From positions 1-64,000 of IMG/VR virus record IMGVR_UViG_3300032288_002343: DNA of 64,000 nucleotides; one strand, given 5' to 3'. Under the pieces are notes generated by a model, which was not told the DNA's origin, searched no databases, and worked only from the letters and a program-made list of their open reading frames with translations. How positions within the stretch are numbered: the first letter of the stretch is position 1; the number at the start of each line of letters is the position of its first letter. Made by a program: the position numbers and the translations under genes. This stretch comes from a virus. Lineage: Duplodnaviria > Heunggongvirae > Uroviricota > Caudoviricetes. Shown one piece after another: positions 10,939 to 58,928 of the stretch.

Positions 10939-10940
10939 TA

Positions 10941-10963: not shown

Positions 10964-10998
10964 ATATATCAGGGTGGGAAATCATTCTGTATTTCAAA

Positions 10999-11417: not shown

Positions 11418-11654
11418 CAATAACAGTGAATGTATACATTTAATGTGGGGTGGACACAACCACAGCTGTTATTTGTTGCATATGACACACAACAGAATAT
11501 ATATGCTGAGGCAACATTAGGCTATATATTCGCTTTGTTAAGGTGTTCTATCTGTTCTACTTCAAAGAATGGAGGCTTTTTATAGTTGAAGCGCTCAATA
11601 AACTATTATTTTTTCCTTAAACCCTTAATAATCAACAATTTAAAACAGTTTGCT

Positions 11655-34094: not shown

Positions 34095-34100
34095 ATAAAA

Positions 34101-34127
34101 AAGGGGGACTAAAAATCCCCCTTTATT
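34101..34127 (+). terminator. rho-independent terminator
   Basis: GGGGGA-ctaaaaa-TCCCCC hairpin followed by TTTATT. Confidence 0.55.
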
Positions 34128-34148
34128 AAACATTTTAAAAACAAAAAC

Positions 34149-35684
34149 ATGTTAAGCCTAAATTGGTTCAAATCAAGAAAACAAAGAGAACTAGAAGAAT
34201 TAAAGGTTGAGGAGCAAAGAATAAAGAATGAGCTCCTAAGAAAAGAGTTGTATCAAGCTACACCAGCTACACCTGCTACATCAGCCCCTGTAGAAAAGAC
34301 CTACAACTGGACTGTTAACACTGCACCCACACCAACAGTAAGTGTAAAACCTTACAAAACTGTGAAGATGGTGAATGATGTACTAACCGTCGTACTAAAT
34401 GATGGATCTGTACTATCTAAACCTGGTGCTACATCAGATGATTTCATTGCTGCTCGTAATGCTACAGATGAGGTGGACATCCTAAATATTGTAGCTACAC
34501 AGGAAATTGTCACAGAAAGAAAGAGACAAGAGTTTGAAGCTGAGAAAGCTAGAGCTCTGAAGGCTGGTATCCAACTGTTGGCCCAATTAGATGATTTTGA
34601 GGTGAGAGGAGATAGTGTCTATCTAAAGGGTATCAACCGTTCATTACCACAGCTGCTGGTAGAAGAGTTTCTCCGTATTGTAAATAAATACAACATGGGA
34701 CTATTCAAAGATTGGCAAGTTGAGCGTATACTTGAGAGAGATGATGAGTATCAATCACTTAAGCGCTTCTTTATGTGGTGCTGCCTGAATCCTAGAGCAG
34801 AAGTGGCTGACAAGCTGTACAACTTCCTCAAGAAGAACAGCTTTAAGATCACCAAGCAGGGATTCTTTGTAGCGCTTCGTAATGTAGTAACACTCCACGG
34901 ATCTACAGAGCTGGTCCAGTTTGTATCTAATGCATACAACAAGGTGAAAGCTGTATGGAAGAAGAGCCCAGATGCATATGAAGTGTATCTAAAGGATGGT
35001 CAGTATAGCTTTATTCATATCGATGACACTTACACTACAGAACTAATGGAAGGTGAAGAGTGGTATGATGAGGAGATTGATGAATATGTTACATCTGAAG
35101 ATGAAGAAGTTACAGTGAAGAGATCTGATCTGGGTGAATTGATTGGTAATCTAACAGACCTTTATCTAGACCTACCAAACCGTGCAGAGAATCGTTTTAC
35201 AGATGCTCACACACAAACCTTTGATATCAGAATTGGTAGACCAGTGAATATGGACCCAGGTGCATGTCGTTGGAATACAGACGATTGTGGAGCAGAAGGT
35301 TTGCATTTCACAGCCAATGAAATCCATTATGTAGGATGTGGTGACCAGTCTGTATTGGTACTTATCAATCCTATGAAGGTTGTGGGTATTGGTGAATCTA
35401 AGGGCAGATGCTGGGAATATCTCCCTATCATGACTGTTCCTCGTGAGGAGGCTACAGAAATCCTACATGATCTAGACTTTGATACTTTGCAACTGGATGA
35501 TAGTTACGCCATCCGTGAGCTTGAGAGCTTGACAGATAAAGCTAAAGAAGGCTTTGTTGCTGAGTCTAGAAAGCATGAGTTCAACATTCCTCACATTTCC
35601 ACTGTAGAGATTGAAAACATTGTTGCTTCTTTGGACAACATGAAGGATGAAATCAGCTCTAGAGTACAGATGATTGTTGATTAA
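34149..35684 (+). CDS. hypothetical protein (511 aa; N-terminal coiled coil)
   Basis: Long ORF between two terminators. No recognisable motifs. Confidence 0.5.
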   Translation: MLSLNWFKSRKQRELEELKVEEQRIKNELLRKELYQATPATPATSAPVEKTYNWTVNTAPTPTVSVKPYKTVKMVNDVLTVVLNDGSVLSKPGATSDDFIAARNATDEVDILNIVATQEIVTERKRQEFEAEKARALKAGIQLLAQLDDFEVRGDSVYLKGINRSLPQLLVEEFLRIVNKYNMGLFKDWQVERILERDDEYQSLKRFFMWCCLNPRAEVADKLYNFLKKNSFKITKQGFFVALRNVVTLHGSTELVQFVSNAYNKVKAVWKKSPDAYEVYLKDGQYSFIHIDDTYTTELMEGEEWYDEEIDEYVTSEDEEVTVKRSDLGELIGNLTDLYLDLPNRAENRFTDAHTQTFDIRIGRPVNMDPGACRWNTDDCGAEGLHFTANEIHYVGCGDQSVLVLINPMKVVGIGESKGRCWEYLPIMTVPREEATEILHDLDFDTLQLDDSYAIRELESLTDKAKEGFVAESRKHEFNIPHISTVEIENIVASLDNMKDEISSRVQMIVD

Positions 35685-42879: not shown

Positions 42880-43280
42880 GCACATGCCCCACGTGTGGAG
42901 CAAAGTGTGAAGGATCTCATTGTTTCAGACATAAACCTAGAAAGCCACTAGCTATTAAAAAAGGATTCAGTAATTTGACAAAACCTGTTAAATCTGAAGA
43001 GGAAATTCGGAAGATTTCCGAGATGCAGGAGTTTTTCTTACAATTATGGAAAAAATTCCCTCATTATTCCCAGGTTAGTGGAAAATATTTAGGATCTGAG
43101 CCTCTAACAGTGTTCTTTCATCACATTCTTCCTAAGGAAAAATGTCCTCAAGCTTCTATGGATGAGGAAAATATCATACTTTTGACTCTAGAGGAGCATG
43201 AACAGATAGAACTGGACATGTATAGGTATGAAGAAGTCAATACTAAGCGTAACTACTTAAAAAAGAAATATGACATTTAG
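42876..43280 (+). CDS. HNH-like endonuclease
   Basis: CPTCGAKCEGSHC zinc knuckle and HHILPKEKCP. Confidence 0.45.
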   Translation: MSTCPTCGAKCEGSHCFRHKPRKPLAIKKGFSNLTKPVKSEEEIRKISEMQEFFLQLWKKFPHYSQVSGKYLGSEPLTVFFHHILPKEKCPQASMDEENIILLTLEEHEQIELDMYRYEEVNTKRNYLKKKYDI

Positions 43281-43713
43281 AGAAAAAATACTCCTAGTGC
43301 TGCTCTTTGCAGTGCTAATCTTCGTACCTATTCTAGTGATGGAAGTAGATAAGAAGATTGATGTCTATCAGGACCAAGTTATAACACTTAATGGTTGTAC
43401 ATATGACATAGATGTAACTGTTATAGTTACAGCAGACACTGAAAAAGCTATGGAGTTTGTAGTGGAAAATACCACAAGTTCCATAACATCAGAAGACTTC
43501 CTTGCTAGTGGAACTACATTTAGCGATGAAGAGGGGAATATAATAGTTTGGTTATCTAGTCCACAAGATAAAGGTGTTATTAGTCACGAGCTCTTGCATG
43601 CCACAATTTCCATAATGTCATGGGCAGGGATTCCTTTTAATGAAAGTACAGAGGAGTCCTACGCCTATGAACTTCAGTATTTAACAAATCAATTTTATAA
43701 ACAAATCAAATGA
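43270..43713 (+). CDS. membrane-anchored HExxH mini-metallopeptidase-like protein
   Basis: N-terminal TM helix LLVLLFAVLIFVPILVM, then SHELLHATISIM...NESTEE (HExxH plus a downstream Glu). Confidence 0.45.
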   Translation: MTFREKILLVLLFAVLIFVPILVMEVDKKIDVYQDQVITLNGCTYDIDVTVIVTADTEKAMEFVVENTTSSITSEDFLASGTTFSDEEGNIIVWLSSPQDKGVISHELLHATISIMSWAGIPFNESTEESYAYELQYLTNQFYKQIK

Positions 43714-44012
43714 AAAACCAGTTTTTCTACACTCGTAAGGAGTTAAAATCAGGGACTCCAGAAAACCCTGTGTACAATGTATTTCGTGACAGCTTTAACA
43801 TCAACAAGGTGATTCGCTCTGTTGCTATTGAGGATGGACGTATAATGATTTTATTAGATGATATCCATGAGCGTGCTCAGGAGGTTCCTGAAATTGATCC
43901 TCGTACTAATAAGATGAAGGGTATGAAGCGTCAGAAGAATACATTCCAGTCTGAAATTTATTTAGAAGGAGAAGACGTAGAACGTTTTTATGCTGCCACT
44001 AATATCATGTAA
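43710..44012 (+). CDS. hypothetical protein
   Basis: 100 aa ORF. Confidence 0.4.
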   Translation: MKNQFFYTRKELKSGTPENPVYNVFRDSFNINKVIRSVAIEDGRIMILLDDIHERAQEVPEIDPRTNKMKGMKRQKNTFQSEIYLEGEDVERFYAATNIM

Positions 44013-44742
44013 AATGATCACTTATGGTAGGGTGAGTACGCTTGAGGAAAGTTTAGAATCTTTCCTCAGGCAGGACTACCCTGCTGATAAATGTGAGCTA
44101 GTGATAGTGAATGACTATCCCTTACAAACTCTTAAGTTTGATCACCCACAGGTGAAGATTGTAAATGTCAATCAAACATTCACAACTATTGGAGCTAAGG
44201 AAAACTTTGCAACAGAAATGTGTGATGGAGAGATTATATGCCAGTGGGATGATGATGATTTAGCTATGCCTTGGCATTTACAGAATGTAGCTAAATATTT
44301 CACAGATGATGTGAACATTCTCCATTGGAATCCTGGTGTGTTTTATAACGGAGATAATATAACAGACATCACCTGGATAGGTAATTCAGGAATAGTATTT
44401 CGTAAATCTGTTTGGAAAGAAATAGGAGGACATCCTATTGAGAACGCTGGATATGACATGACATTCATAGAAACTCTGCATAAGTATGGAGGAAGACTAT
44501 TTGCTGAACCTCCTAAAGCTGAAGCTAGCTGGTTTTATATGTGGGGAGGACGTAGCTATCACATGTCTGGTCAGGGACATGATAAACCTGGCAAACCTAA
44601 TGCCATCCAAAGGCACAGTGCATATATAGAAAACCTTAGACAGCAGGGTAAGATTCCTACAGGTGAGGTGCAACTCAATCCTCATTGGAAAAAGGATTAT
44701 GTTAAGATGTTAGAAGACCACATAAAAAAAGCCCCTAGATAG
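43990..44742 (+). CDS. family 2 glycosyltransferase
   Basis: N-terminal GT-A start ITYGRVSTLEESLESFLRQDYP, VIVNDYP, DxD region QWDDDDL. Confidence 0.6.
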   Translation: MLPLISCKMITYGRVSTLEESLESFLRQDYPADKCELVIVNDYPLQTLKFDHPQVKIVNVNQTFTTIGAKENFATEMCDGEIICQWDDDDLAMPWHLQNVAKYFTDDVNILHWNPGVFYNGDNITDITWIGNSGIVFRKSVWKEIGGHPIENAGYDMTFIETLHKYGGRLFAEPPKAEASWFYMWGGRSYHMSGQGHDKPGKPNAIQRHSAYIENLRQQGKIPTGEVQLNPHWKKDYVKMLEDHIKKAPR

Positions 44743-44755
44743 GGGCTTTCTTATT
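44731..44755 (+). terminator. rho-independent terminator overlapping the stop codon
   Basis: GCCCCT-agat-AGGGGC hairpin followed by TTTCTTATT. Confidence 0.55.
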
Positions 44756-44921
44756 AAACAAACAATTATGAAACAAAAACTATTTTGAAAGACGTTTAGT
44801 CTTCATAGGCCACATTTTACTTGACCTTCTAAGCTTTGTATCTGCTTCCTTCATATAGTTAGCATTAATGGGCTTAGGGGCTGGGACTTTGGGTGCCTTT
44901 TTTGGTTTACCTGATTTCATA

Positions 44922-45380
44922 TTAATAGCATCCTCCTCTGCATTTACCACCCATCATCATTTTCTTAGGTGACTTACCAGCTTTCTTCATGGCAATAGCT
45001 ACAGCAGCTTGCTTCTTTAAAGCAGCACCGCCTTTAGCTTTCTTCATTTTACCACCATTCTTAATAACACCACGTCCTTTAAGAATATCAGCTTTAGTGA
45101 TTTTACCATCTTTGTTCAGGTCAGGGAAACTCTTACCATTCTTAGCCTTTACCTTAATTCCTTTACGCCCTATGTTCTTTTGAGAAGCAGGCATAGCAGG
45201 CTTATTCTTTTCAAGATTTCTAATCTCTTCTTTAGTAGCTTGACGGTCTTTACGCTCAATCTTACGAGGATTATATTTTGGCATGCTTTTCATTTCCTTT
45301 TTACTAGGAGTGATCATACCACTAGGATACTTACGAGTGGTGGTATCTCCACCCATTTGATACTTTTTAATCTTTCCCAT
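44922..45380 (-). CDS. basic paralog 1 (K/R-rich, MGKIKKYQMG N-terminus)
   Basis: 152 aa, extremely basic. Last gene of a five-gene tandem family. Confidence 0.55.
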   Translation of the reverse strand: MGKIKKYQMGGDTTTRKYPSGMITPSKKEMKSMPKYNPRKIERKDRQATKEEIRNLEKNKPAMPASQKNIGRKGIKVKAKNGKSFPDLNKDGKITKADILKGRGVIKNGGKMKKAKGGAALKKQAAVAIAMKKAGKSPKKMMMGGKCRGGCY

Positions 45381-45401
45381 TTTTATTTGAGTTTTTAATT
45401 G

Positions 45402-45854
45402 TTAGCAATTCCATTTACGGAGAGACTTATTAATTCTGCTATTTGGATCGTTGGCAGTTTTGGCAGATGTCAGTCTTTTCTTCATTCCAGACATACGAGC
45501 ACAAAAACTCTTACGACGATTAGCAGCTTTACTTCCAGGTTTTAGTTTAGAAGGCTTAGTGGTTACAGCTGTCTTAAGCTTGCTTCCAGGATTAGCACGT
45601 CTATAACTTGCTACACCCTTAGCATTCAATCCACCTGAAGGATTCTTTCCTTCCTTTCTTTGCCAAGCTGGTGTACTACCACCGCTACGCATTTTGGGAG
45701 CTCTACGTTCTTCACGTCTAGCTTGTCTATCAGCTTGACGGTTTTCTCTAGCAGCTTGACGTTCTTCCTTACGCACTTGTTTTTCAATACCACAAGAACG
45801 ACCACTAGATCTACCAACACGCATGCCCATTTGAGCTTTCTTAACTGTAGCCAT
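45402..45854 (-). CDS. basic paralog 2 (MATVKKAQMG)
   Basis: 150 aa, R/K-rich. Confidence 0.55.
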   Translation of the reverse strand: MATVKKAQMGMRVGRSSGRSCGIEKQVRKEERQAARENRQADRQARREERRAPKMRSGGSTPAWQRKEGKNPSGGLNAKGVASYRRANPGSKLKTAVTTKPSKLKPGSKAANRRKSFCARMSGMKKRLTSAKTANDPNSRINKSLRKWNC

Positions 45855-46303
45855 TACTTCTTCTTTTTGTAGTAATTAGGATTTTCCCTGTGCCACTTCC
45901 TAACAGAAGCAACACCCTGTTTTACTGTCTTAGCTTTGGCTTTTTTAGTGAGGTTGATTTTGTCCCATTTACCAGCAGGAATACCAGCTGTATGATCTAC
46001 AACAATATCACCTTTCTTATTCTTAAATACCTTGTGAGTTTGTCCACCAACCTTCACAACAGCCCCACCTTTTTTAAGTGTAGAACCTTTGAAAGGTCCT
46101 TTCTTCTTAATAAGTGGTCCGTTAGGAACAGGTGTAATGGATCCCTTGACAGCTGTAATTGTATCACCACTCCTTAAAACACGTTTACCCACATAAGCTT
46201 CTGCTTTCTGTGGGTTACGTACGCCATTTCCTCTTGTTACATTCTGAGGAAGTGTGTTGCGCAATCTAGGAGCGCTCTTGAGGAGTTTCTTAATGCTAGG
46301 CAT
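45854..46303 (-). CDS. basic paralog 3 (MPSIKKLLKS)
   Basis: 149 aa, K-rich. Start overlaps the preceding stop. Confidence 0.55.
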   Translation of the reverse strand: MPSIKKLLKSAPRLRNTLPQNVTRGNGVRNPQKAEAYVGKRVLRSGDTITAVKGSITPVPNGPLIKKKGPFKGSTLKKGGAVVKVGGQTHKVFKNKKGDIVVDHTAGIPAGKWDKINLTKKAKAKTVKQGVASVRKWHRENPNYYKKKK

Positions 46304-46680
46304 TATTTCTTACGCATCTTCTTTAAGGTCTGAGCAAGACGTGCACGCTGACCTAATTTACCTTTAGCCTTTGCAGCTTTAGCAAGCTTAGCAGCAGGGA
46401 TGGGTTTACCAGGCTTAGCACCAAGTTGAGCACGGAGAGCTCCAGGCTTCTTAATAGCCTTTTGAATCCATTTGCCACCTTTAGCTTTAGCCACCTTAGC
46501 ACCCTTCTTAGCAGTCATACTAGTAGCACCAAGTTCTTTATCACGTGTAAGACTAACAGGTGTACGCTTACCAGCAAGTGTCATTTCTTGCACCTTTGTC
46601 CAAGCGCCCTTAGGATCAACAGGTCCTACACGCTTAGTAGAAGCTTTTAAACCAGCTTGAGCTTTTTTAATATGTCTCAT
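46303..46680 (-). CDS. basic paralog 4 (MRHIKKAQAG)
   Basis: 125 aa, K/A-rich. Confidence 0.55.
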   Translation of the reverse strand: MRHIKKAQAGLKASTKRVGPVDPKGAWTKVQEMTLAGKRTPVSLTRDKELGATSMTAKKGAKVAKAKGGKWIQKAIKKPGALRAQLGAKPGKPIPAAKLAKAAKAKGKLGQRARLAQTLKKMRKK

Positions 46681-47114
46681 TTTCCTTTAGCTTTAATTTT
46701 ACGTTCTTGTTTTAGCATTGCTGCTGTAGGTTTTTTACCAGGCTTACCTGCTGCCTTATTACGTTTAGCTGCTGCACGAATATTATCCCACAAACCACGT
46801 TGTGAAACAGATCCATCAGCACGCTTTAACATTTGTTTACCACCCTTGGCCTTAGTCATCTTACCACCAGAGCGTTGTTTAGGAGCAGTTTTTTTAGTGG
46901 TTTTTTCAATAGCTTTATTAAACACATTCTTTAAGCTATCACTCTTAGCTGCTCTTTTGGATAATTCTTGTGAAATATCATCGTATCCTTTTGGACCAAT
47001 AGTTCTTTGTCTAGCAGCAGCCATTCTTGTTCTAGCATCGTAATCAAGAGAATCTCTTTTTCTCTTTGCTTCAGATAGTGTAAATCCTTTCTGAGCTTTT
47101 TTAATATTAGCCAT
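46677..47114 (-). CDS. basic paralog 5 (MANIKKAQKG)
   Basis: 145 aa, K/R-rich. First gene of the array. Confidence 0.55.
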   Translation of the reverse strand: MANIKKAQKGFTLSEAKRKRDSLDYDARTRMAAARQRTIGPKGYDDISQELSKRAAKSDSLKNVFNKAIEKTTKKTAPKQRSGGKMTKAKGGKQMLKRADGSVSQRGLWDNIRAAAKRNKAAGKPGKKPTAAMLKQERKIKAKGK

Positions 47115-47126
47115 GTCAATAATTTT

Positions 47127-47366
47127 TTATAGACCAGCAACCTTAGGGGCTTCTGGAGCTTCTTTAACAATGTTAGCTTCTACAGCTTTAGCAAGCGCTG
47201 CTTCAACAGCTTGGTTAGCTTCATTAGCTAGAAGAATGCGTCCAGCTTCTTCTGTATTTAGAACAGCACGAAATGCGTTCAAAATGAGACCAAATTCTGC
47301 TCCTGTGAATTCAAATTTGTCTGTGGGAGTCCATGTGTAGCGTTTGCTAGGATCGTAAGTTGCCAT
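47127..47366 (-). CDS. hypothetical protein
   Basis: 79 aa. A canonical promoter lies just upstream. Confidence 0.45.
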   Translation of the reverse strand: MATYDPSKRYTWTPTDKFEFTGAEFGLILNAFRAVLNTEEAGRILLANEANQAVEAALAKAVEANIVKEAPEAPKVAGL

Positions 47367-47388
47367 ATTATTTATTTTTTGGTTTGGA

Positions 47389-47420
47389 CAAATGTATATA
47401 TGGTTTATGAATTTTCCAAA
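47389..47420 (-). promoter_or_regulatory. Bacteroidota-type promoter (TTTG-N20-TACATTTG)
   Basis: Reverse complement reads gaTTTGgaaaattcataaaccatataTACATTTGtcc, about 20 nt upstream of the ATG at 47366. Confidence 0.5.
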
Positions 47421-47695
47421 TCTATTTCAAAAGCTATCGTGGCTGAGCTTTTTATACTCTTAGACAACTTGAGCTTTATGTGGAAGACATTATGTAGTTT
47501 AAGGATCTCTTCCAATAGCATCTGGTTATATTTAGGAACACTGGGTACCAGTCTAAAATGATAAGAATGAGGATTCTTGGTTATCTCCAGGATACTTAAT
47601 TCATCCACTGAGTTAATCACTCCCTCTAGATGTGCAAAATAAGCTACTTCGTTATCAGGCATCACCTCAGGGAAGAACCTCTTATTAATTGTCAT
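47405..47695 (-). CDS. hypothetical protein
   Basis: 96 aa ORF. Confidence 0.4.
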   Translation of the reverse strand: MTINKRFFPEVMPDNEVAYFAHLEGVINSVDELSILEITKNPHSYHFRLVPSVPKYNQMLLEEILKLHNVFHIKLKLSKSIKSSATIAFEIDLENS

Positions 47696-48108
47696 TAGGA
47701 CAGTGTTAGCAGGTACTTAGTTTTTGCAGCTTCTCCAGATAGAGCGTCAGCTAGATTAGCAATGTCATGAAACCCGTTGCTCTCACCAAAACTCTTAAGG
47801 CTTGAGGCGAAACTCATAAGCTCACTCACCACAATACTAGCACTTGCTGTATCTGATAGAGGTTCTACCTTTGGTGCTTTGGGACGCTTGCCCATATAGC
47901 CCATAAGTTTCTCAATCACCCCATCCTTAAAATCATGTACATAATCATATAGTCCACCAAGAGCTTGGTGTTCTGCATAACTCTGTGTTTGCCAATGCAA
48001 TAAATGTAATTGCTCATGGAAGTAGGTGAGCTTTCCAGCAATGCCTTCAAGCGTCATTTCACCAGCCCCACTCTTCAGCATGTCTGAAGGAAATAATGAC
48101 TTTGCCAT
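47695..48108 (-). CDS. hypothetical protein (138 aa; true start MAKSLFPSD)
   Basis: The track's 163-aa version starts inside the poly-Thr repeat of the upstream gene in another frame (MLYSYYNYHYNN...). The ATG at 48108 follows the upstream stop by 2 nt. Confidence 0.45.
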   Translation of the reverse strand: MAKSLFPSDMLKSGAGEMTLEGIAGKLTYFHEQLHLLHWQTQSYAEHQALGGLYDYVHDFKDGVIEKLMGYMGKRPKAPKVEPLSDTASASIVVSELMSFASSLKSFGESNGFHDIANLADALSGEAAKTKYLLTLS

Positions 48109-48110
48109 AA

Positions 48111-48314
48111 TTATTGAATAGTAGTTGTAGTAGTTGTTGTAGGTGCTACTGTTGTTGTAGTGGTAGTTGTAGTAGGAGTACAACATTGATTTGCATCAAT
48201 CTCTTGCCAATTACCAACCTTAGGTTTAAATCGCTGAAGGATTAAACTTCCTGCAATTACACGTCCTGTACCATCGTAACGAACGTATGCCTTTAGCTTA
48301 TTATTAGTTGCCAT
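48111..48314 (-). CDS. small poly-Thr-tailed protein, paralog A (67 aa)
   Basis: MATNNKLKAYVRYDGTGRVIAGSLILQRFKPKVGNWQEIDANQCCTPTTTTTTTTVAPTTTTTTTIQ. Confidence 0.5.
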   Translation of the reverse strand: MATNNKLKAYVRYDGTGRVIAGSLILQRFKPKVGNWQEIDANQCCTPTTTTTTTTVAPTTTTTTTIQ

Positions 48315-48325
48315 ACTTTTAAAAT

Positions 48326-48503
48326 TTAGGGTTGAGTGGTTGTGGTTGTAGTTGTAAGATTACAGCATTCATAAGCTGGAATTTCCACCCACTTACCTAC
48401 CTTGGGTTTTTTCCTTCTTAGAATCAGGCTGCTGGGAACGATTCTCCCAGAACCGTCAAAGCGTACATAAGCTTTGAGAGGGCGACTGTCAATTGTGGCC
48501 ATG
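48326..48503 (-). CDS. small poly-Thr-tailed protein, paralog B (58 aa; below the ORF-track cutoff)
   Basis: Hand translation from the complement ATG at 48503: MATIDSRPLKAYVRFDGSGRIVPSSLILRRKKPKVGKWVEIPAYECCNLTTTTTTTQP. Clear paralog of the 67-aa protein. Confidence 0.45.
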
Positions 48504-48504
48504 A

Positions 48505-49521
48505 TTAATAGTTTAAATTATACTTGTTAAAAAGTTCTTTTAATTCGTTTGCATAATACCATGTACATCTAGTTTTTGATTTCTCATCACTGAGAACAGA
48601 GTTAAGATGTTCATCTTTTGAAGGATCTAGTCCTTGATGATATTTACCTTTATAAAAACAGTTGTGTCCATCCATAAAAGGAGACACAATTCCTGCATTA
48701 TGAAGGATTGGATGTGTTTCTAGTTTAGTAATGGGGTCTGGTGCCCAGCTAAATCCCATTTCAGGAATCACCTTCACCTCTTTTTCTTTTACCCACAGGT
48801 TCCACAGAACAGCCCACATATCAGCACACCAACTTTGGAATCCTTTGTTTTCGTTATCAAAGAATTCTTTGTTCACCTTCTGTAAGTAGCTTCTAATAAC
48901 AATACAGTCATTTATCACCTTGTTCCAAAAACTAGCATCTATGTTCTTAAGGAGGTATTGAGCTCCACCACTATCATCATTCTTAGCTACAGCTTCCTCC
49001 CTACTGATACCAATCACACTTCCTATTTCAGCAAGTATATCGCGTGTCTTGTATTCCTCTAGTTTCTCAGGTTTGACATCTCTCACCTTACTATCAAAAT
49101 ATGCAGCACTTATATAGCTGGTTGTTTCAGAAAGATAACATACATCATCATCCACAAACTGTTGAATATCAAAATGTTGTGTGAACAACACATCTGAATC
49201 ACAGTAGAATATAGCCTTATCGCTTAGTTCTGGATGTTTTTGCCAGTGTCTCCAAAGAGTGTAAGGTCTAAGCACAGGGATGTAGATTCCTAAAAGAGAA
49301 CTTATTTGATGTTCATCTTTATAAAAGTGAAACTCAGCCTCAGGATAGAGATCTATAACTTGTTTCCACTTAGGATTTTCCTCTCTGTAATTAGGAGTGA
49401 AAATAAGAACAATAGCCTTGTCAGATTCGTTTCTCTTTCTAAGGCTCTCCAACCATAAATGTACCTGCCATGTGTAGTAGGTATCATCTGGTTGAACACA
49501 GACATACTTTAAATCCTTCAT
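48505..49521 (-). CDS. putative nucleotide-sugar glycosyltransferase (DxD)
   Basis: 338 aa. Contains FYCDSDVLF (DxD-like). Flanked on both sides by poly-Thr-tailed small genes. Family unclear. Confidence 0.4.
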   Translation of the reverse strand: MKDLKYVCVQPDDTYYTWQVHLWLESLRKRNESDKAIVLIFTPNYREENPKWKQVIDLYPEAEFHFYKDEHQISSLLGIYIPVLRPYTLWRHWQKHPELSDKAIFYCDSDVLFTQHFDIQQFVDDDVCYLSETTSYISAAYFDSKVRDVKPEKLEEYKTRDILAEIGSVIGISREEAVAKNDDSGGAQYLLKNIDASFWNKVINDCIVIRSYLQKVNKEFFDNENKGFQSWCADMWAVLWNLWVKEKEVKVIPEMGFSWAPDPITKLETHPILHNAGIVSPFMDGHNCFYKGKYHQGLDPSKDEHLNSVLSDEKSKTRCTWYYANELKELFNKYNLNY

Positions 49522-49550
49522 ATGTAGTTATTGGTTTTAAAAGTTTCTCC

Positions 49551-49694
49551 TTATGGAGTGGTAGTGGTTGTAGTGGTAGTGCTAGCATTAGCTATAGTAC
49601 CCACTATCCCAATCAGTTGCTGAAGCTGCTTAGAAATATTCCAAAGGAGCTGCGACTGAGGGTCCTGACTTAAGGGTCTTGATGGTATTGCCAT
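49551..49694 (-). CDS. small poly-Thr-tailed protein (47 aa) sharing its N-terminus with the collagen-like fiber
   Basis: Hand translation: MAIPSRPLSQDPQSQLLWNISKQLQQLIGIVGTIANASTTTTTTTTP. The upstream fiber starts MAIPSRQIGWGPQENLLWEIAKQMEQL. Confidence 0.4.
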   Translation of the reverse strand: MAIPSRPLSQDPQSQLLWNISKQLQQLIGIVGTIANASTTTTTTTTP

Positions 49695-49696
49695 GA

Positions 49697-50536
49697 TTAT
49701 GCGATTCTATTTACTGTAAAAATTACTCCTGGAGATTGTGGTATAGTGCTTCCAACAGGAGGTATACTTGTTATAACTGTTTTTCCTTGGTTATTAGTCC
49801 ATTCCATTGCCACTATATCACCAGCAGAAAGTACTAGAAAAACGTTCACTGTCATGAGAGTAGCACCAGGTGTGCCTCCATGAATAGTGGGAGTTGTAAT
49901 GTAACTAGCTGTCTTAGGGACATCAACTCCATTTAATGTAAACCAAACTATAGCATCCTCAACATCATTGCTGAAGTTTTCAAACTGTATGCTAAACTGT
50001 AAATTGTATGTTCCAGCATTAACAATAGTGACATCTCCTGTAAGAGGGTTAAGTGTCACCCCATTTGAAAGATCTGTTTGATCTAGTTTTACTTGTGCAG
50101 GCACACCAGCAGGTGTGTATTGTGCTTGAGAAACACCAGCTCCAATAGCATGGTTAGCTCCACCAGAACTGGCTACACCTCTTGTAATTCCTGTAAAGGT
50201 GTTTCCAGAGATACCTGTGTAACCTATAATCTCTGCACCAATTCTCATATATCCAGGAGAATAAAATCCTGCTGTACTTGCCACCTGAATTGGAGCAGTG
50301 GTATTAGAATTCATTGAAGCTGTAAGAACAGTGGCACTATTAAATATAAAAGCTCCGTGATAGGCATTTGTCAATGATCCAGAAGCACCCTGAGGACCCT
50401 GAGGACCCTGAGGACCTTGAGGACCAACACCACCTATATTACAAAGCTGGCAGCCTAATTGCTCCATTTGCTTTGCAATTTCCCACAAGAGGTTTTCCTG
50501 AGGGCCCCAGCCTATCTGTCTTGACGGAATAGCCAT
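49697..50536 (-). CDS. collagen-like (GPQ)n fiber protein with C-terminal globular domain
   Basis: GGVGPQGPQGPQGPQGASGS encoded by a (CCTGAGGAC)n-like repeat at about 50390-50425. Ser/Thr/Gly/Asn-rich beta-rich C-terminal 200 aa. Confidence 0.6.
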   Translation of the reverse strand: MAIPSRQIGWGPQENLLWEIAKQMEQLGCQLCNIGGVGPQGPQGPQGPQGASGSLTNAYHGAFIFNSATVLTASMNSNTTAPIQVASTAGFYSPGYMRIGAEIIGYTGISGNTFTGITRGVASSGGANHAIGAGVSQAQYTPAGVPAQVKLDQTDLSNGVTLNPLTGDVTIVNAGTYNLQFSIQFENFSNDVEDAIVWFTLNGVDVPKTASYITTPTIHGGTPGATLMTVNVFLVLSAGDIVAMEWTNNQGKTVITSIPPVGSTIPQSPGVIFTVNRIA

Positions 50537-50991
50537 AAGTTCACAAATATATGGTGTTAGTTAGAGAAAACAATGACCCTCAACAAATTACAATAACTAA
50601 GTTAGTTAAAACGGCTCTAACTAAACTTGTTTAAATATTTGGACAGCAAAATATAGGAGGCAAAGAATGATCCTGAGATTCCATAGAAGATAAGATCGGC
50701 TGCCCAAAATGAGCCAGTTACCTCCATTATCAACTTGAAAAGGAAATCGTACCCAAAGGGTAGGAAGAACATTGCCAGCATCAATGATGCGTCTCTTAAG
50801 GCTTTTAGCCTCTGTCTTTGCTTTCTTAACATGATCACCTTCCATAAAGGGGGTTTTCGTTATCTACCTTGCCCTCTATATTTAGAGGACTTTCTGTCTT
50901 TAGGACCTCTGCTTTTAGCAGCTTTCCCACCCTTGCGCTTGCCAAAGGTGATTTTCCTAGATTCGCCTGATGATTTGGTTTTAGCCATGGT

Positions 50992-51420
50992 TTATTTATT
51001 TAACATTACAGATGTATATATAGTCCAGGCAGCCAGAAGGCTGAGAAGACCTACAATAGTGTTCTTACTATCACGCTTTAGAAAACGGATGGTATTTTCA
51101 GCTTCTTCATATTTACTCTTATAAACATCCACCTGCTTGGTAACAACTCCCACCTCATCCATGGACTTAGTGAGATTTTTGGAAAGCTGGATGTTTCTAA
51201 CTCCCATACTTGCCATTTGCTTACGAAGGGTGAGGGTGAGTTCATTAAGTGTTGATAATGAGTCCTTTAGAAGGGTAAATTGATTATTTATGTCCTCACC
51301 CTGTTTAACGGTCATTATTACCACAGTGTCCTTACCTATTGTCTTTACCGTTGGATACTGGCAGTAACTTGAAAGGCTTACCAGCATCAACAGCGTCATC
51401 AAGCTTAGTCTTAAGTTCAT
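50992..51420 (-). CDS. secreted/membrane protein (signal peptide plus C-terminal TM)
   Basis: MNLRLSLMTLLMLVSLSSYCQ. Overlaps the upstream ORF by about 90 nt, so the start is uncertain. Confidence 0.4.
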   Translation of the reverse strand: MNLRLSLMTLLMLVSLSSYCQYPTVKTIGKDTVVIMTVKQGEDINNQFTLLKDSLSTLNELTLTLRKQMASMGVRNIQLSKNLTKSMDEVGVVTKQVDVYKSKYEEAENTIRFLKRDSKNTIVGLLSLLAAWTIYTSVMLNK

Positions 51421-51661
51421 TATTTTCTGCTTTAAGAACCTTTACCTCTTGTTTAAGAGTGGTAATCTGGTTCACTGTTTTTGTTACTTTTTGGTTAATG
51501 AGCTGATCGCTTTTTCTACTAGTGCTGTCAGCTGAGACAAAGTTTTTTTGACTTTGCTCAAGTATTGAATCAACTGTGTTAATTTCATCTACTTGTAATT
51601 TAGGTTCTGATGAGCTGCAACCCACCAGAATAATTAATAATATTGATAATACAAGTCTCAT
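51332..51661 (-). CDS. lipoprotein (spanin-like outer component candidate)
   Basis: MRLVLSILLIILVGCSSSEP has a lipobox LVGC. Coiled-coil remainder. Confidence 0.45.
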   Translation of the reverse strand: MRLVLSILLIILVGCSSSEPKLQVDEINTVDSILEQSQKNFVSADSTSRKSDQLINQKVTKTVNQITTLKQEVKVLKAENNELKTKLDDAVDAGKPFKLLPVSNGKDNR

Positions 51662-51663
51662 AA

Positions 51664-51948
51664 TTATTTGATTTTACCAAGTTCTTGAAGAGTGGTAATC
51701 TTAGAAATAGCAGAACTCAACGCACTATCAGACTTTCTAAGCTGATTAGTTAATAGATCCACCTTTGTTTCTAACAACTCAATCTTCTTTCCTTGAGTTT
51801 CAATCTGATTGTTGTAATTAATTTTGCCATCTACATATAAGTAGCCTACAGCCACCAGGCAGATGAACATGAGCCCTTTTACAGGTTCTTTTGCAAACTC
51901 TGCAAAGCTTATAGGCAGGGCACTAACCTTCAGTTCCTTCTTGCTCAT
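51664..51948 (-). CDS. membrane protein with coiled coil (spanin-like inner component candidate)
   Basis: TM helix GLMFICLVAVGYLYV followed by a coiled coil. Confidence 0.4.
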   Translation of the reverse strand: MSKKELKVSALPISFAEFAKEPVKGLMFICLVAVGYLYVDGKINYNNQIETQGKKIELLETKVDLLTNQLRKSDSALSSAISKITTLQELGKIK

Positions 51949-52189
51949 TATTATTTCCTTTTGTTTTATTAATCCATTTGTCTACAGAAGCAATTCCAAA
52001 TGCTCCTAATACTATCACCATAAAACCATCAAAGATAAATTCCTGGATAGGCATCACCTTACCCATAACACCAGTGACAATATCTGTAGCTAGTGTTATT
52101 ACCATCATAAGGAAGGCAATAAATCCAACCACAGCTTTCTCATTGATAGAGTTGTCATCATTAAATAAATCGTGTAAGAACTTTTTCAT
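51923..52189 (-). CDS. holin candidate
   Basis: 88 aa with two hydrophobic helices and a charged C-terminus. Immediately upstream of the endolysin. Confidence 0.5.
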   Translation of the reverse strand: MKKFLHDLFNDDNSINEKAVVGFIAFLMMVITLATDIVTGVMGKVMPIQEFIFDGFMVIVLGAFGIASVDKWINKTKGNNNEQEGTEG

Positions 52190-52779
52190 GCTAATAAATT
52201 GTAGTATTCTTTAAAATGTTTTAAACGGTCAGGAAGACCGATTGTACCACCATTAACACACTTAGTTACAGCTGTAACGGTTGCATCAGAAGCGTCTACA
52301 CATTTTTTCAGACAGTTCTTATGGAAGAACCAGGCAGCTGACAATAAAGGGTATTTAGTGGCTACAAGATCTGGATTAGCTACGATATCTTCAGGGACAA
52401 CAGCGTCAAATGCTTTATAGTTGTCTTTTCCTGTAAGTTGGATGTAGCCTCTTCCACGAAACTTGTATCCTTCACCAGAAGCCTCAGGACCATTTCCCAT
52501 TCTTCCTCCATATACCAGATTAGCTATCTTTTCAGGTTTACGCTCGTACTCCTTAGCTTTAGCTTCTGTGGGGAAATACTTCTTAAAGATGGAAAGAAGA
52601 CCCTTGGCTCCATAATTAAGGTTCTCGTTCACTGCCTTAAATCCAGCTGATTCATGTCCAGCCTGAGCTAGGAAGTGAGCAAGTTTTACGGGGGTGTTAA
52701 TTTCAAACTTGGAGATTGTGTCAGGTAGCTGATCTATTACAGCATCAGGTACGTGACCTTTTAGTTTTTCAATGTTCAT
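52186..52779 (-). CDS. endolysin, glycoside hydrolase family 19 / lysozyme-like
   Basis: LAHFLAQAGHESAGF signature, ...GRGYIQLTG... 197 aa. Confidence 0.7.
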   Translation of the reverse strand: MNIEKLKGHVPDAVIDQLPDTISKFEINTPVKLAHFLAQAGHESAGFKAVNENLNYGAKGLLSIFKKYFPTEAKAKEYERKPEKIANLVYGGRMGNGPEASGEGYKFRGRGYIQLTGKDNYKAFDAVVPEDIVANPDLVATKYPLLSAAWFFHKNCLKKCVDASDATVTAVTKCVNGGTIGLPDRLKHFKEYYNLLA

Positions 52780-53387
52780 TTCTTAAGCTTTATCTTCCAA
52801 TAAGCCCCCAATCCGTATTGTAAATTGCCATAAGTATTTACACTTAGTGACCCTCCAATTAGAAAATCCTTCCTGGTTTTCAGAAGAGCAGAAGCCCCTA
52901 TTTGTGAATTATCACCATCAGTTTGGAAGGCCCCCCCTATATACACCTGGTTAACTTTTTTTGCGGGGAGAGTGATTGTTTCCGTAATTATTGGGTATTT
53001 AATATTCACATGTGTGCCTCTACCAACAATAAGGTTCTTCTGAACTGTGTCAGTTATCTTTACATACCCATTACTATCAATGCGTATGGAATCCTCCATA
53101 ATGTTCTTCGCAAGTAATTGATTTACAATCTCTTGGTACTGAATCACCAGCTTTGCATAGTTGGTATCTGGTATATACTGGTTGATGATAGTATCATGTG
53201 ATTCTATCTCAATAGTCTTCACCAGCTGAGGTTTGCTGTATATCAGGGAATCTTTTACCACCCAAGCTGTGTCTCTAACAATTGTAGGTTCTTCAGAAGG
53301 ACTAGGTTGAGCACACTTTTGCAGCACCACTATTATCAGTAGCACCACTATAGCTAAGGTTAATAAATTCTTCTTGATAAACTCCAT
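52776..53387 (-). CDS. membrane-anchored protein
   Basis: N-terminal TM LLTLAIVVLLIIVVL. 203 aa. Confidence 0.45.
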   Translation of the reverse strand: MEFIKKNLLTLAIVVLLIIVVLQKCAQPSPSEEPTIVRDTAWVVKDSLIYSKPQLVKTIEIESHDTIINQYIPDTNYAKLVIQYQEIVNQLLAKNIMEDSIRIDSNGYVKITDTVQKNLIVGRGTHVNIKYPIITETITLPAKKVNQVYIGGAFQTDGDNSQIGASALLKTRKDFLIGGSLSVNTYGNLQYGLGAYWKIKLKK

Positions 53388-53388
53388 A

Positions 53389-53709
53389 CTAATTACTTAG
53401 ATTGGCAATTATTTTACTGATATATTCAGCTCCCATAACAAGTGTGCCTATAATGGCAGCAGCCCAATACACCTTCTTCTTGAAATCCTCATGTTTTTCC
53501 ACCTGTTTTTCTAGCTTATTTATTTTAGCTTCTAGGTACTCAATATCTTTAACAAAACCTCCCTGTTTAGTGAGGGGATTGCCCAAGATAGCGTCTACCA
53601 CTTGTGTAAGTTTGGTATCTATAGAGTCCATTTTCTCTTCTAGATCATAAAGACGCTGGTCCATACTTTTTAATTCTTCTTTTACTTGTTCTTCAAATAG
53701 ATTTTCCAT
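53389..53709 (-). CDS. coiled-coil protein with C-terminal TM anchor
   Basis: 106 aa. C-terminal WAAAIIGTLVMGA. Confidence 0.45.
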   Translation of the reverse strand: MENLFEEQVKEELKSMDQRLYDLEEKMDSIDTKLTQVVDAILGNPLTKQGGFVKDIEYLEAKINKLEKQVEKHEDFKKKVYWAAAIIGTLVMGAEYISKIIANLSN

Positions 53710-53892: not shown

Positions 53893-56800
53893 ATGCCAAA
53901 TAGCTATACATTCTTCAAGCCAGAAATAAGACAGTGGTTCATTGACAATGTTCCCACCAGTAAGAGAATCTTAGATGTAGGCCCAGGACAGGGGACCTAT
54001 TCCAACCTACTTAGAGACCTTGGATATAGGATGGATGCAGTGGAAGTGTGGGCTCCCTACATAGAGCAATTTGATTTGCGATCTAAGTATGATAATGTCT
54101 ATAACGCCAACATCTTAGACTTTGATTTAACAGATTACGACTTTATTATACTAGGTGATGTTCTAGAGCATATTAGCACAGAGAACGCTCAGAACCTAAT
54201 TGACACTATAGTAAACTCTCTAAAAGATTGCCTAGTGGCAATTCCCTACATGATGGAGCAGGACGGGGAAGAGTATGGAAATGTTTATGAGACCCACCTT
54301 CAAGCAGACCTCACTCCTGATGTAATGAGGCAGCGCTATAAGATTTTAGAACCCATCTATAAGAATCAGTATTATGGTTATTACATCAATAAGCGTATTA
54401 GAATAAAGCGTGGGTTTGTAATGTACGCTACAGAAAGCTATTTAGATACTGTACAGGCAGCTGTAGATTCAATTCGTAAATACAGCTCTCTTAACATTTT
54501 TGTATATATGGTAAACTCCACTGCAAGAGTGAGAGGTGCTGTAACTATTGAATGGCCTGTTGCTATAAAACCTACAGAAAAGAAATCGTTTATTGACCGT
54601 GGAGATAGTAATGTCTATAAACTATTAATCCAGCGTCCTCAGATTGTAAGAGATGCACTACGTTATATGGAAACTGTGGCTTATGTAGATAGCGATAGTG
54701 TTGCCACTCCTTATATCGAACGTATTTTTGACATGTTCCCTGAGAAATCCTCCATCCCTTATTTTGTAGAGGGTATTTATGAATGGATGCTTGCTAATGG
54801 TAGAGGGGGAGCTGATTCTTATGATGATCTATCTACCACTCTTGAGCATCCAGCCTGTGAGCTGTTTGGTGTTAACCAGAAGGTTAGAAAGTTATATAGA
54901 CAAACTGGATATTTTGTAGCAGGCCAGTGGTGTGACAAGTTTCTAGCAGAGTGGAGATGGATGTGTATGCATCCTGAGGTATTTAAAAACCCTCAATACT
55001 ATGCACCCTATCATGAAGAAACTATTGTTAATACCCTCCTATGGAAGCATAACTTCCATGAGGGTTTGCCATACATCTATATAAACGGTGGGCTCGATAG
55101 AGTGAATAAAGCATACGGTGGTGAGGCCAAGTATATTCCTGGAATTCGTAACAATTTAGGACACTTCTTTAGACTACCTGATTCAAGACAAGACATCCTC
55201 TTCTTTCATGGAGAGAAAGATCCTGTTAGAATGAAAGAAATATCTGATAGAATAGACTTCTATAATAAGTACAAGATTGACCCCACAAAAAACTGGGGAG
55301 ATATTATTTCTCATAGGATCATCTCTCATTTTACAACAAAGAAGATTGATCCTATGGATATTTTCCATTTTGATACAAGTGCTATTGTTCCAAAAAAGAA
55401 AGGAAAACTTCTTGCTGTAGGAAGTGCTATGGTGTTTGCTAGACAGAATGACTATGTGTGGGGAACAGGTGTAATATCAGACAGAGAGGTGAATATAGAG
55501 GAACATCCTAGAAAGATATATGCTGTAAGAGGACCTATTACTAGAAAAGAATTACTTCGTGCAGGATTAGAATGTCCTGAGGTGTATGGTGATCCTGCTC
55601 TTTTATTTCCACGTATATACCAACCTAATGTCGATAAGAAGTACAAGTATGGAATAATTCCACACTATTCTGAATATCAGAACGCTGATGTTCTTAATGC
55701 TTTGTACAAGCTAGAAGATATGGAAGTGAAAGTGATTAATATCACTACAGGAATAGAACAATTTGTAGATGAGGTGAATGAGTGTGAATACATCATCTCT
55801 TCTAGCTTACATGGTATAATTGTAGCAGATGCATACAGAATACCTAATGTTCGTGTGCGCATGTCTAATGATATTGTAGGGGGAGATTTCAAGTATATGG
55901 ACTACTTTGCATCTGTAAAACGTGAATACCAACACAAACCTATTTGGATTACAGAGAACACTACACTAGAAGATATTGAAAAGTTTCCATATGAATTAGG
56001 AGACATCAGTTGTGCTGATGACCTATTAGCTAATGCTCCTTGGAAAGATCCTGAGTGTGCACTGTTTACTCCTACTAAAATTTTGTTTGTAGCACCGCAT
56101 CTATCTACAGGTGGAATGCCTGCCTTCCTATTGAAAAGAATAGATGCACTTCTTGCACACTCTGATTTTGAGGTGCATGTTGCTGAGTTTAGTTGCTATA
56201 GTAATGAGTTTGTAGTGCAGCGTAATAAAATTAAAGCAACACTAGGTAAAAGATTCCATGAGGTGGGAGCTGACAAGATGAATCTACTAAACATAATCCA
56301 TGATAACAACATAGATGTAGTGCATGTTGATGAGATTATGGAAGGGTTTGACAGCTTTAATCGTGTACCCACACCTGTATTAAGAGCTCTATATGACTCT
56401 AGAAGAACATGGCGTATTGTTGAGACATGTCACAATGTATGGTTCAATCCTGATAAAGACAAAATATTCCATCCTGATGGATATGCATTCTGTACTCCTT
56501 ATCATGAAATCACATTTGGTAACATGCCTTCTGAGAAGAAGGTGATTCAGTTTCCAATTGAGAATAGAGTGCCAATCTATCAGATGAAACGTAGAGCTAA
56601 AGAACAATTAGGATTTGATCTTAACAAAAAACATGTGCTCAATGTAGGACTATGGACTCCTGGTAAAAACCAAATAGAGGGTTTAGAGATAGCTAGACAA
56701 CTCCCTGACATTCAGTTTCATTTTGTAGGCAATCAAGCTCCTAACTTTGAAGACTACTGGGGACCAGCGATGAAAGATCTTCCTCCTAATGTAAAGATTT

Positions 56801-58254: not shown

Positions 58255-58928
58255 ACCTAGACAACTTTATATGGGAACCAAATCTGTACCCAACATTTAA
58301 AGAAACAATTATCAATGAGATCTTTGAACAGAAGATCTACGAACGTATATTTCCTGTAGAGGAGGGAGATGTAGTGCTGGATATTGGGGCTAGTCTTGGA
58401 CCATTCACATTCTCTATTCTACACAAGAAACCAAAACATGTGTTTGCCCTAGAGCCAAGTTACTCAGAGTTTAAAACGTTGGTTCTCAATACATTACACG
58501 GAAATGTTACACCTATCAACAAAGGGATAGGTGCTAAGGTGGGAGAGTTTAAGTTTGACAACATCTTTCTAAACGATGGTATAAAGATGTACTCAACTAC
58601 ATTCACACAGTTGATTGATGATTATAACATCCAGACAATTGACTTCCTTAAGACAGATTGTGAGGGTGGGGAGTATGACATATTCACTCCTGCTAATCTC
58701 ATATGGATTAAGCAGAACGTAAAGAAGATTGCAGGAGAATGGCACTTAACCACTCCTGAACTAAGAGAAAAGTTTAGAGCATTCAGAGACACCTACTTAA
58801 GAATATTCCATAGACATCAAGTGTATTCAGTGGATGCTGTTAATATCACTTGGGATCTATGGAATGATAAATTTTTGAACTACTATAGTGAAGTGATTCT
58901 TTATATAGACAATCAGGATTATTTGTAG
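58251..58928 (+). CDS. FkbM-family SAM-dependent methyltransferase
   Basis: VLDIGASLGPFTF motif. 225 aa. Start overlaps the mega-enzyme stop. Confidence 0.6.
   Translation: MNLDNFIWEPNLYPTFKETIINEIFEQKIYERIFPVEEGDVVLDIGASLGPFTFSILHKKPKHVFALEPSYSEFKTLVLNTLHGNVTPINKGIGAKVGEFKFDNIFLNDGIKMYSTTFTQLIDDYNIQTIDFLKTDCEGGEYDIFTPANLIWIKQNVKKIAGEWHLTTPELREKFRAFRDTYLRIFHRHQVYSVDAVNITWDLWNDKFLNYYSEVILYIDNQDYL

Follow-up and report, generated by a model that had tools for sequence, protein, structure and literature searches.

Why do five adjacent phage genes, whose products can be aligned almost nowhere else, begin with the same short peptide? These genes, here called g1 to g5, form a tandem array on the minus strand at positions 44922–47114 of a 64,000-nucleotide stretch of a tailed-phage genome (IMG/VR record IMGVR_UViG_3300032288_002343). 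We refer to the whole stretch as the window; by coordinate arithmetic, it corresponds to approximately positions 1564–65563 of a 115,908-bp metagenomic contig. The answer we favor, at slightly less than an even chance, is that the array encodes virion-internal polycations of a crAss-like phage of aquatic Bacteroidota, which would make it a non-homologous analog of the internal proteins of bacteriophage T4. The open reading frames (ORFs), read from the sequence, are:

46677–47114, minus strand: g1, 145 amino acids (aa), N-terminus MANIKKAQKG
46303–46680, minus strand: g2, 125 aa, N-terminus MRHIKKAQAG
45854–46303, minus strand: g3, 149 aa, N-terminus MPSIKKLLKS
45402–45854, minus strand: g4, 150 aa, N-terminus MATVKKAQMG
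44922–45380, minus strand: g5, 152 aa, N-terminus MGKIKKYQMGG

The preliminary description of this locus reported five consecutive lysine- and arginine-rich genes of 125–152 aa, and all five ORFs are indeed present on the minus strand. Their products have isoelectric points (pI) of 10.5–11.9, a combined lysine and arginine content of 25–29%, and net charges of +30 to +34. The genes are tightly packed: g1 and g2 overlap at ATGA, g2 and g3 as well as g3 and g4 overlap at TAATG, g4 and g5 are separated by 21 nt, and a single nucleotide lies between the stop codon of g5 and the start of g6, the small final gene of the operon.

Shared start motif and its internal copies

The tag consists of seven residues, I-K-K-A-Q-x-G, and all five genes begin with Mxx[IV]KK. 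A six-frame search of the 64 kb for M..[IV]KK returned six occurrences, five of which are the start codons of g1 to g5; array and motif are therefore real, with chance excluded. This bears out the common start that had been noticed from the letters, as well as the degenerate version noted for g3. A looser pattern, [IVLM][KTAR]K[AY][QK].G, applied to ORFs with a length of 60 aa or more in the window and in the neighboring capsid region, matched only within the array (seven matches, in g1, g2, g4, and g5). At the DNA level, the proposed common element ATTAAAAAAGCTCA(A/G) holds in part: the exact string occurs only in g1 and g2, whereas g4 (GTTAAGAAAGCTCAA) and g5 (ATTAAAAAGTATCAA) diverge from it, partly at synonymous sites.

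The information content of the leader collapses right after the glycine. Glutamine and glycine are near-invariant and the residue between them is free, and synonymous codon use in the leader is that of the gene bodies, which indicates that selection acts on the peptide rather than on an RNA or DNA element. The term “paralogous,” used when the array was first described, fits the leader but not the remainder of the proteins, as a multiple alignment of g1 to g5 contains four invariant columns, of which the leader accounts for three, and no alignable core outside the motifs.

The motif does stand at the gene starts, as had been proposed, but is not confined to them. A second, slightly degenerate copy is found just before the C-terminal module in three genes:

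46839–46859, minus strand: MTKAKGG, g1 aa 86–92, coinciding with the 3′ edge of a cassette replaced relative to the close relative L004 (see below)
46474–46494, minus strand: VAKAKGG, g2 junction, aa 63–69
45027–45047, minus strand: MKKAKGG, g5 junction, aa 112–118

Across the family, we counted 57 internal copies against 1.8 expected in shuffled sequences (approximately 30-fold), and 15 against 0 for the strict form; the modules directly behind them are of types such as FPDLNKDGKI, WIQSAIKKPGA, MLKRADGS, and TPAWQRKEG. Judged by these positions, the motif, in the general form [IVLM]xK[AY][QK]xG, is a module-boundary mark as well as an N-terminal tag.

Modular architecture and cassette exchange

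Read by their parts, the array proteins are modular mosaics, not simple paralogs. The layout of the family is a tag (phi-K-K-A-Q-x-G), a variable segment, a junction of the form K-x-K-x-G-G-K (often phi-x-K-A-K-G-G), and then either a conserved C-terminal module or a bare KKK tail. In g1, a variable middle is followed by the junction MTKAKGG and a “RGLWDNIRAAAKRNK” module. Its homologs form 1442 clusters in metagenomes, most of which share only the C-terminal module (85–98% identity) behind unrelated middles; at least 54 unrelated kinds of segment precede this module, and in 110 homologs the 30 residues behind the leader could be grouped into 54 clusters. The core N-terminal tag is nevertheless present in 106 of 120 g1 homologs, which were found mainly via the C-terminal module, and the exceptions are mostly one-residue variants. 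Elsewhere the g1 middle is paired with DUF6321 (P0009), with the g2 module (P0011, P0105), or with other tails.

The g2 protein joins the leader MRHIKKAQAG through the junction VAKAKGG to a “WIQKAIKKPGALRAQLG...GQRARLAQTLKKM” module, and has weak matches to phrog_20603 and phrog_15706, which are stand-alone phage proteins of 59–77 aa. In g3, the degenerate leader MPSIKKLLKSAPRLRN precedes a conserved core (GKWDKINLT...). The 1463 homolog clusters of g3 vary in their N-termini (MPSIKKLL, MARIPKTK, MPRIKKAG), and in some homologs the core is joined to DUF6321 via an MMKNGGS junction. Taken together, the pairings of the g1 middle, the g1 C-terminal module, and the g3 core with varied partners indicate that modules assort independently. 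An AlphaFold (AF2) model of g3, built with 45 homologs, has a mean predicted local distance difference test score (pLDDT) of 53.5 and is unreliable; its visible elements are a small beta-sheet and a moderately confident helix.

Behind the leader MATVKKAQMG and a stretch rich in arginine, glutamate, and glutamine, g4 carries the one annotated domain of the array:

45411–45650, minus strand: DUF6321 domain of g4, aa 69–148, Pfam PF19846

With an E-value of 1.6e-20 and 74 bits against a gathering cutoff of 28.5 bits, g4 is a bona fide member of this family; it also matches eight PHROGs (best E 1.8e-35) and keeps the conserved DUF6321 cysteine pair (aa 118 and 150). The same PF19846 search gave no match for g1, g2, g3, or g5. 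AF2 models the DUF6321 part as helical (pLDDT 71), with no fold match in the PDB and only DUF6321 proteins matched in BFVD; a sequence search of the PDB with g4 also returned nothing. By tblastn, the DUF6321 module is found in 535 phage records, mostly of cyanomyoviruses and pelagiphages. In cyanomyoviruses it ends T4-GC119, a multi-module basic protein encoded beside the terminase genes, which was listed as a “Structural protein” with 13 peptide counts in purified virions analyzed by mass spectrometry (Sullivan et al., 2010, Table S8; PMC3037559). That the phage concerned is S-SM1 is read from the text and column order of that table. The module that g4 shares with this detected protein is the one experimental, and indirect, link between the array and the virion. 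In S-SCSM1, whose virion proteome has been measured (PMC9602691), the DUF6321 protein is named “Virion protein” and was not confirmed among the 45 proteins detected by mass spectrometry. The closest DUF6321 match (90%) is in Marine virus AG-345-E15 (region 1975–6498), within a 454-aa basic multi-module protein that has as neighbors a basic protein of 632 aa and one with a cytidylyltransferase domain; a cytidylyltransferase has been reported among cyanomyovirus virion proteins (PMC3037559).

The g5 protein combines the leader MGKIKKYQMGG, an EF-hand- or dockerin-like loop, the junction MKKAKGG, and a C-terminal CRGGCY:

45087–45122, minus strand: g5 loop DLNKDGKITKAD, aa 87–98, fitting the 12-residue form DxNxDGxIxxxD

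Its Pfam matches to Dockerin_1 (E 0.01; 16.4 vs. 22.9 bits) and EF-hand_5 (E 0.057; 13.4 vs. 25.9 bits) both lie under the cutoff. Among 136 leader-bearing proteins, the DxNxDGxIxxxD loop occurs in 21 and a terminal C..GC in 28; 57 have no cysteine, 53 have two, six have four, and 20 have an odd number. Lysine makes up 21.6% of residues in the family and arginine 5.6%. The excess of lysine over arginine, the mostly even cysteine counts, and the calcium-type loops suggest the chemistry of an extracellular particle, because all three are more usual outside the cytoplasm. Otherwise Pfam, NCBIfam, and PHROGs gave nothing informative for g1, g2, g3, and g5, and matches of array proteins to Fusello_VP2 (E 0.033) and PDZ (E 0.073) were rejected as chance.

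The array is syntenic in related contigs of approximately 110–116 kb. Two related genomes, L004 and L006, share the gene order DUF5856 gene, 96-aa gene, 79-aa gene, five to seven basic genes, 45-aa basic gene, and convergent glycosyltransferases. Comparison with L004 gives 90–100% DNA identity in the flanks and C-terminal modules. From the g1 tag to its junction (47110–46853), identity drops to 42–57%, and it is back to 90–100% from 46852; a segment of g5 that starts just behind the leader (45357–45190) is approximately 40–57% identical, and at 45869 there is an insertion of one complete additional gene with the tag. At 90% identity, g1 and g3 each have approximately 1450 homolog clusters, compared to 194 for the adjacent 79-aa gene. 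Given these cluster numbers, and cassettes that have been replaced relative to L004 and L006, with the flanks kept in L004, the locus is a hypervariable cassette island with short conserved motifs as its borders.

Such a pattern could also arise if the motif had no targeting role and were a relic of the serial duplication and fusion of one ancestral gene start, kept for initiation in Bacteroidota that lack Shine-Dalgarno sequences, as microhomology for recombination, or both, with protein functions unrelated to it. The start regions are A-rich, cassette breakpoints coincide with motifs, and internal copies resemble fused gene starts (for example, GGK-IKKAQAG-LKAS reads as a g5-type module followed by a g2-type protein). 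We regard this explanation as quite improbable: the freedom of synonymous sites places the constraint on amino acids and not on RNA or DNA, glutamine and glycine are held while their intervening residue varies, and internal copies, which have no start codon to preserve, stay conserved and are enriched 30-fold over shuffles.

A degenerate DNA pattern for M-x-x-I-K-K-A-Q-x-G was used to scan IMG/VR and prokaryotic genomes. At least 119 IMG/VR loci matched, and of 142 matches approximately 100 lie at the start of hyper-basic proteins 70–260 aa long. In 185,579 prokaryotic genomes (GTDB, one per species), the pattern was found at no fewer than 120 loci, which is about the chance level; among the matches listed there was one true member, on a 4.6-kb contig of a metagenome-assembled genome. 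By this comparison, the leader-bearing family is essentially viral. A member from another lineage (L027, IMG/VR 3300013288_000040, 10203–11567) is a protein of more than 455 aa with the tag both at its N-terminus and internally (SIKKAQLG); it has a Gly-rich, glycine-zipper region and weak tape-measure matches, and is encoded directly downstream of genes in “virion structural protein” PHROGs. We found no description of a tagged, module-shuffled family in the literature consulted or in curated family libraries.

The near-absence of leader-bearing proteins from cellular genomes (among the matches listed) also bears on whether the array proteins could be small RNA- or ribosome-binding proteins for translation takeover, comparable to the bS21 encoded by phages of Bacteroidota. 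Size, charge, and occasional cysteine pairs do recall small ribosomal proteins, and pelagiphages have arrays of stand-alone basic modules of 40–96 aa. Nonetheless, proteins that must fit a ribosome show the reverse of the hypervariability and cassette swapping seen here. The known ribosomal or histone-like host family to which, according to the preliminary description, the proteins might have turned out to belong did not appear: none of the five matches a ribosomal, HU, H-NS, or histone-type model in Pfam or NCBIfam at E-values up to 1. We consider the ribosomal explanation very improbable.

Genomic setting

The phage is assigned as Crassvirales-type, because its major capsid protein (MCP) matches Pfam Crass_capsid, its portal is P22-type, and its terminase relatives are crAss-like. 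The MCP gene is just left of the window, and portal and large terminase match PHROG families so named. The nearest terminases by tblastn are from Leptolyngbya phage Lbo-JY46 (41%), Cellulophaga phages phi17:2 and phi4:1 (32%), and crAss-like gut phages. Literature searches returned nothing on Lbo-JY46 or on DUF6321.

The array is the end of a minus-strand block (44780–53709) that also encodes an endolysin, an Rz-like (spanin-like) protein, small membrane proteins, a collagen-like, tail-fiber-like protein, and a DUF5856 (Dps/ferritin-like) protein. Sharing an operon with lysis genes raises the question of whether the products are membrane-active polycations that help to lyse the cell or to disrupt its outer membrane, or that target competitors once released; the stand-alone basic modules of pelagiphages are likewise beside an endolysin gene. 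We think this extremely improbable, since five to seven proteins of 120–160 aa would be excessive for such a role, the array proteins lack segments of amphipathic or hydrophobic character, the block already includes a spanin-like gene, and a DUF6321 protein, T4-GC119, has been found in virions.

The same setting bears on another alternative, in which the proteins stay inside the cell, unpackaged, as polycations resembling histone H1 that would compact the DNA of phage or host or shield it, with the motif as a linear DNA- or partner-binding motif ahead of each module. Their composition (rich in K, A, G, S, T, and P, and mostly predicted to be unstructured) would suit this role, as would the Dps/ferritin-like gene two genes upstream, the position of the array outside the capsid block, and internal motif copies, which befit a repeated binding motif. 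Against it stand the virion detection of T4-GC119, the conserved cysteine pairs and calcium-type loop, which are unusual in cytoplasmic DNA binders, the lack of similarity to HU, H-NS, or histone families, and an HU/IHF-like protein that the phage already has. On balance we judge it unlikely.

The immediate neighbors of the array are:

47127–47366, minus strand: 79-aa protein, mildly acidic (pI 4.8), 12 nt upstream of g1
44780–44920, minus strand: g6, 46 aa, basic, without leader, final gene of the operon
44731–44746, no strand: GC-rich hairpin GCCCCT-AGAT-AGGGGC with an A-run and a T-run on its flanks, read from the sequence

The 79-aa protein has 194 homolog clusters, all of approximately 78–80 aa and unannotated. 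It is conserved and invariably stands at the head of the array: homologs lie upstream of leader genes on the same strand in 61 IMG/VR loci (45–86% identity), as well as in L004 and L006. The idea that it might be a charge-neutralizing chaperone was dropped, as its net charge is only about −3. The g6 product corresponds to the 45-aa protein of L004 and has tblastn matches in 40 IMG/VR loci. Together with a 42-aa hyper-basic ORF at 50860–50988 on the minus strand (MAKTKSSGESRK...; no tag; 39 of 42 residues identical in L004), it accounts for the two small basic ORFs pointed out earlier, which are real and conserved in L004 but whose coordinates had been given 1–4 nt off.

The hairpin is approximately 30 nt past the g6 stop codon, and in the minus-strand transcript it forms a 12-bp stem followed by UUUUUUU; a folded 71-nt stretch, comprising this stem and a weaker upstream helix, has a minimum free energy of −18.5 kcal/mol. 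We interpret it as a predicted bidirectional intrinsic terminator that serves the array operon and the convergent glycosyltransferase gene. A simple terminator scanner did not flag it, and a sigma-70 promoter scan gave matches at chance level only, the sigma-70 model not being applicable to Bacteroidota.

Several other genes in the window were recorded. The mechanical ORF of the DUF5856 gene (47695–48186, minus strand) opens with a Y/N-rich extension of 26 codons, and, as homologs begin MAKSLF, its true start is probably 48108. A 147-aa protein (43270–43713, plus strand) with an N-terminal membrane helix and a HELLH (HExxH) motif has no family match but a counterpart at the corresponding place in L006; a small metallopeptidase is one possible identity. 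In the interval from portal to MCP, the expected place of a scaffold or protease, is a Band_7/SPFH (HflK-like) protein (2892–3422, minus strand). RIIA- and RIIB-like genes and the HU/IHF-like gene (31776–35684, plus strand, and 9263–9727, minus strand) are present in this crAss-type genome. A methyltransferase-fold protein (62811–63353, minus strand) is exactly at the Pfam cutoff for spermine/spermidine synthase, a marginal 22.9 bits; a phage polyamine synthase, if true, would bear on DNA charge neutralization. Small paralogous proteins with terminal runs of 7–10 threonines are encoded at 48111–48314, 48326–48502, 49551–49694, and 49697–50536 (all minus strand), and one of them shares the N-terminus MAIPSR..LLW.I.KQ..QL with the adjacent collagen-repeat (GPQ ×4) tail-fiber-like protein. 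Because the genome has many glycosyltransferases, these may be O-glycosylated proteins of the particle surface. The large sugar-modification set comprises a UDP-galactopyranose mutase (E 9e-76), several glycosyltransferases, a 1453-aa multidomain protein, an FkbM methyltransferase, and a 2OG-Fe(II) oxygenase, at:

13660–14784, plus strand: sugar-modification set
43990–44742, plus strand: sugar-modification set
53893–58254, plus strand: sugar-modification set
58251–58928, plus strand: sugar-modification set
58919–59506, minus strand: sugar-modification set
59503–60723, minus strand: sugar-modification set
60704–61846, minus strand: sugar-modification set

Proposed packaging of the array proteins and comparison with known systems

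If the array proteins are virion-internal polycations, they would be made late, from the operon that also carries lysis genes. The motif would act as a common address that directs them to the procapsid, and possibly also as a processing site; their lysines would neutralize packaged DNA, and they would exit with the DNA at infection. Module bodies would be exchangeable cassettes, swapped among phages by recombination between conserved motifs, which would produce the hypervariability. Features of the operon that count toward packaging are its tight spacing, its terminator, and its co-orientation with endolysin, spanin-like, and tail-fiber-like genes.

A number of observations weigh against packaging. 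The capsid-targeting sequence (CTS) of T4 is MKTYQEFIAE; the leaders of the array, Mxx[IV]KK[AY]QxG, do not resemble it, and PHROGs gave no internal-protein match. The (L/I)xE cleavage site is not present in the array proteins, the motif recurs internally, unlike a classical T4-type CTS, and no prohead protease or peptidase family was found among the more than 40 window ORFs or the ORFs from portal to MCP (64 of 116 kb covered). Because the parallel with T4 is thus not one of homology, we hold it with the reserve stated at the outset. The array is outside the capsid gene block, approximately 37 kb from capsid and portal, and closes an operon of lysis and accessory genes. Among 50,697 phage records, searched by megablast with the locus and by tblastn with g1 and with a concatenate of g1, g2, g3, g5, and the 79- and 96-aa proteins, no cultured phage has g1, g2, g3, or g5, although the BLAST low-complexity filter may hide weak matches; Lbo-JY46, scanned whole, contains neither leader genes nor a basic array. 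The DUF6321 link covers one of the five array genes (g4), and T4-GC119 is encoded yet undetected in S-PM2 virions and absent from another genome (PMC3037559). Finally, the virion proteome of crAss001 lists only large cargo proteins and no small basic ones (PMC10172136).

A bolder version, which we consider doubtful, would make phi-KKAQxG an address-and-processing code. A viral protease or the procapsid interior would recognize it, precursors would be cut at every copy into basic peptides of 40–80 aa, and the cassettes would be interchangeable ejected effectors (for anti-defense or host takeover) traded by motif recombination. If true, this would be a natural programmable protein-delivery system in a phage group that ranks among the most abundant in aquatic habitats, evolved independently of the T4 CTS. 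An anti-defense role of the array proteins is pure inference.

Packaging, even without processing, would have several implications. Lake and ocean crAss-like phages would carry a second, independently evolved system of tag plus exchangeable cargo, the hypervariable cassettes would be candidate injected counter-defense factors, and a 7-residue tag could serve as a means of loading particles with foreign proteins. Cyanophages, pelagiphages, and uncultured phages repeatedly carry tiny basic modules (DUF6321, GLW/YxNI[RH]A type, and others) without annotation, and packaging would give these a role as well. The motif by itself is a practical marker for genes often missed by gene callers and BLAST low-complexity filters.

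Within the same viral order, crassvirus particles contain a large internal protein storage zone of approximately 5.5 MDa (PMC10172136). The known cargo (gp45 and gp46 of crAss001 and the virion RNA polymerase subunits) consists of proteins of 60–277 kDa that are conserved across the order, whereas the array proteins have 125–152 aa; in a comparison by PHROG families, they are set apart from Crassvirales cargo by size, position, and the lack of a shared family. The pelagiphages HTVC033P (gp36–42) and Lederberg (gp51–62) have tandem, stand-alone, hyper-basic ORFs of 40–96 aa beside the endolysin gene, similar to the modules of the array. DUF6321 is there a separate 83-aa gene (confirmed by tblastn), and “GLYANIHAKRKRGG” is a 43-aa gene, likened to the g1 C-terminal module by motif resemblance only. 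The pelagiphage modules are separate, unannotated genes without a tag, whereas in the array the modules belong to fused proteins in which a tag and a variable segment come first.

The core proteins pVII and pX/mu of adenovirus condense DNA and are made as basic precursors, which the viral protease trims at sites containing Gly. The array proteins are likewise polycationic and punctuated by short Gly-containing motifs, which do not fit the adenain consensus (M/I/L)XGG-X; the likeness is one of analogy only. With T4-GC119 the array shares both the DUF6321 domain, which forms the C-terminal 80 residues of g4, and the general plan, since GC119 proteins, too, are basic and string several small modules together. 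GC119 proteins differ in being encoded by single genes, of 170–460 aa, next to terminase genes, not in tandem and without the phi-KKAQxG tag.

The closest parallel in anatomy is with T4, whose internal proteins have diverse bodies, a common short conserved tag, and lysines that contact packaged DNA (PMC3012670). No gp21-type protease was found among the ORFs searched here, and the array phage is from a crAss-type, podovirus-like lineage, unlike the T4-like myoviruses. What stands of the likeness proposed in the preliminary description is the tag, the lysine-rich, hypervariable bodies, and cassette replacement; CTS similarity, the (L/I)xE site, and a protease are the parts that do not. As with IPI, IPII, and IPIII, the array proteins are small, lysine-rich, and encoded at a polymorphic locus, and they too combine a conserved tag of 7–10 residues with bodies that are exchanged between close relatives. 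This analogy suits the anatomy of the array more closely than any rival explanation and is partly supported, by indirect evidence; the tagged, module-shuffled family may represent a new, non-homologous variant on the theme of internal proteins with a common tag.

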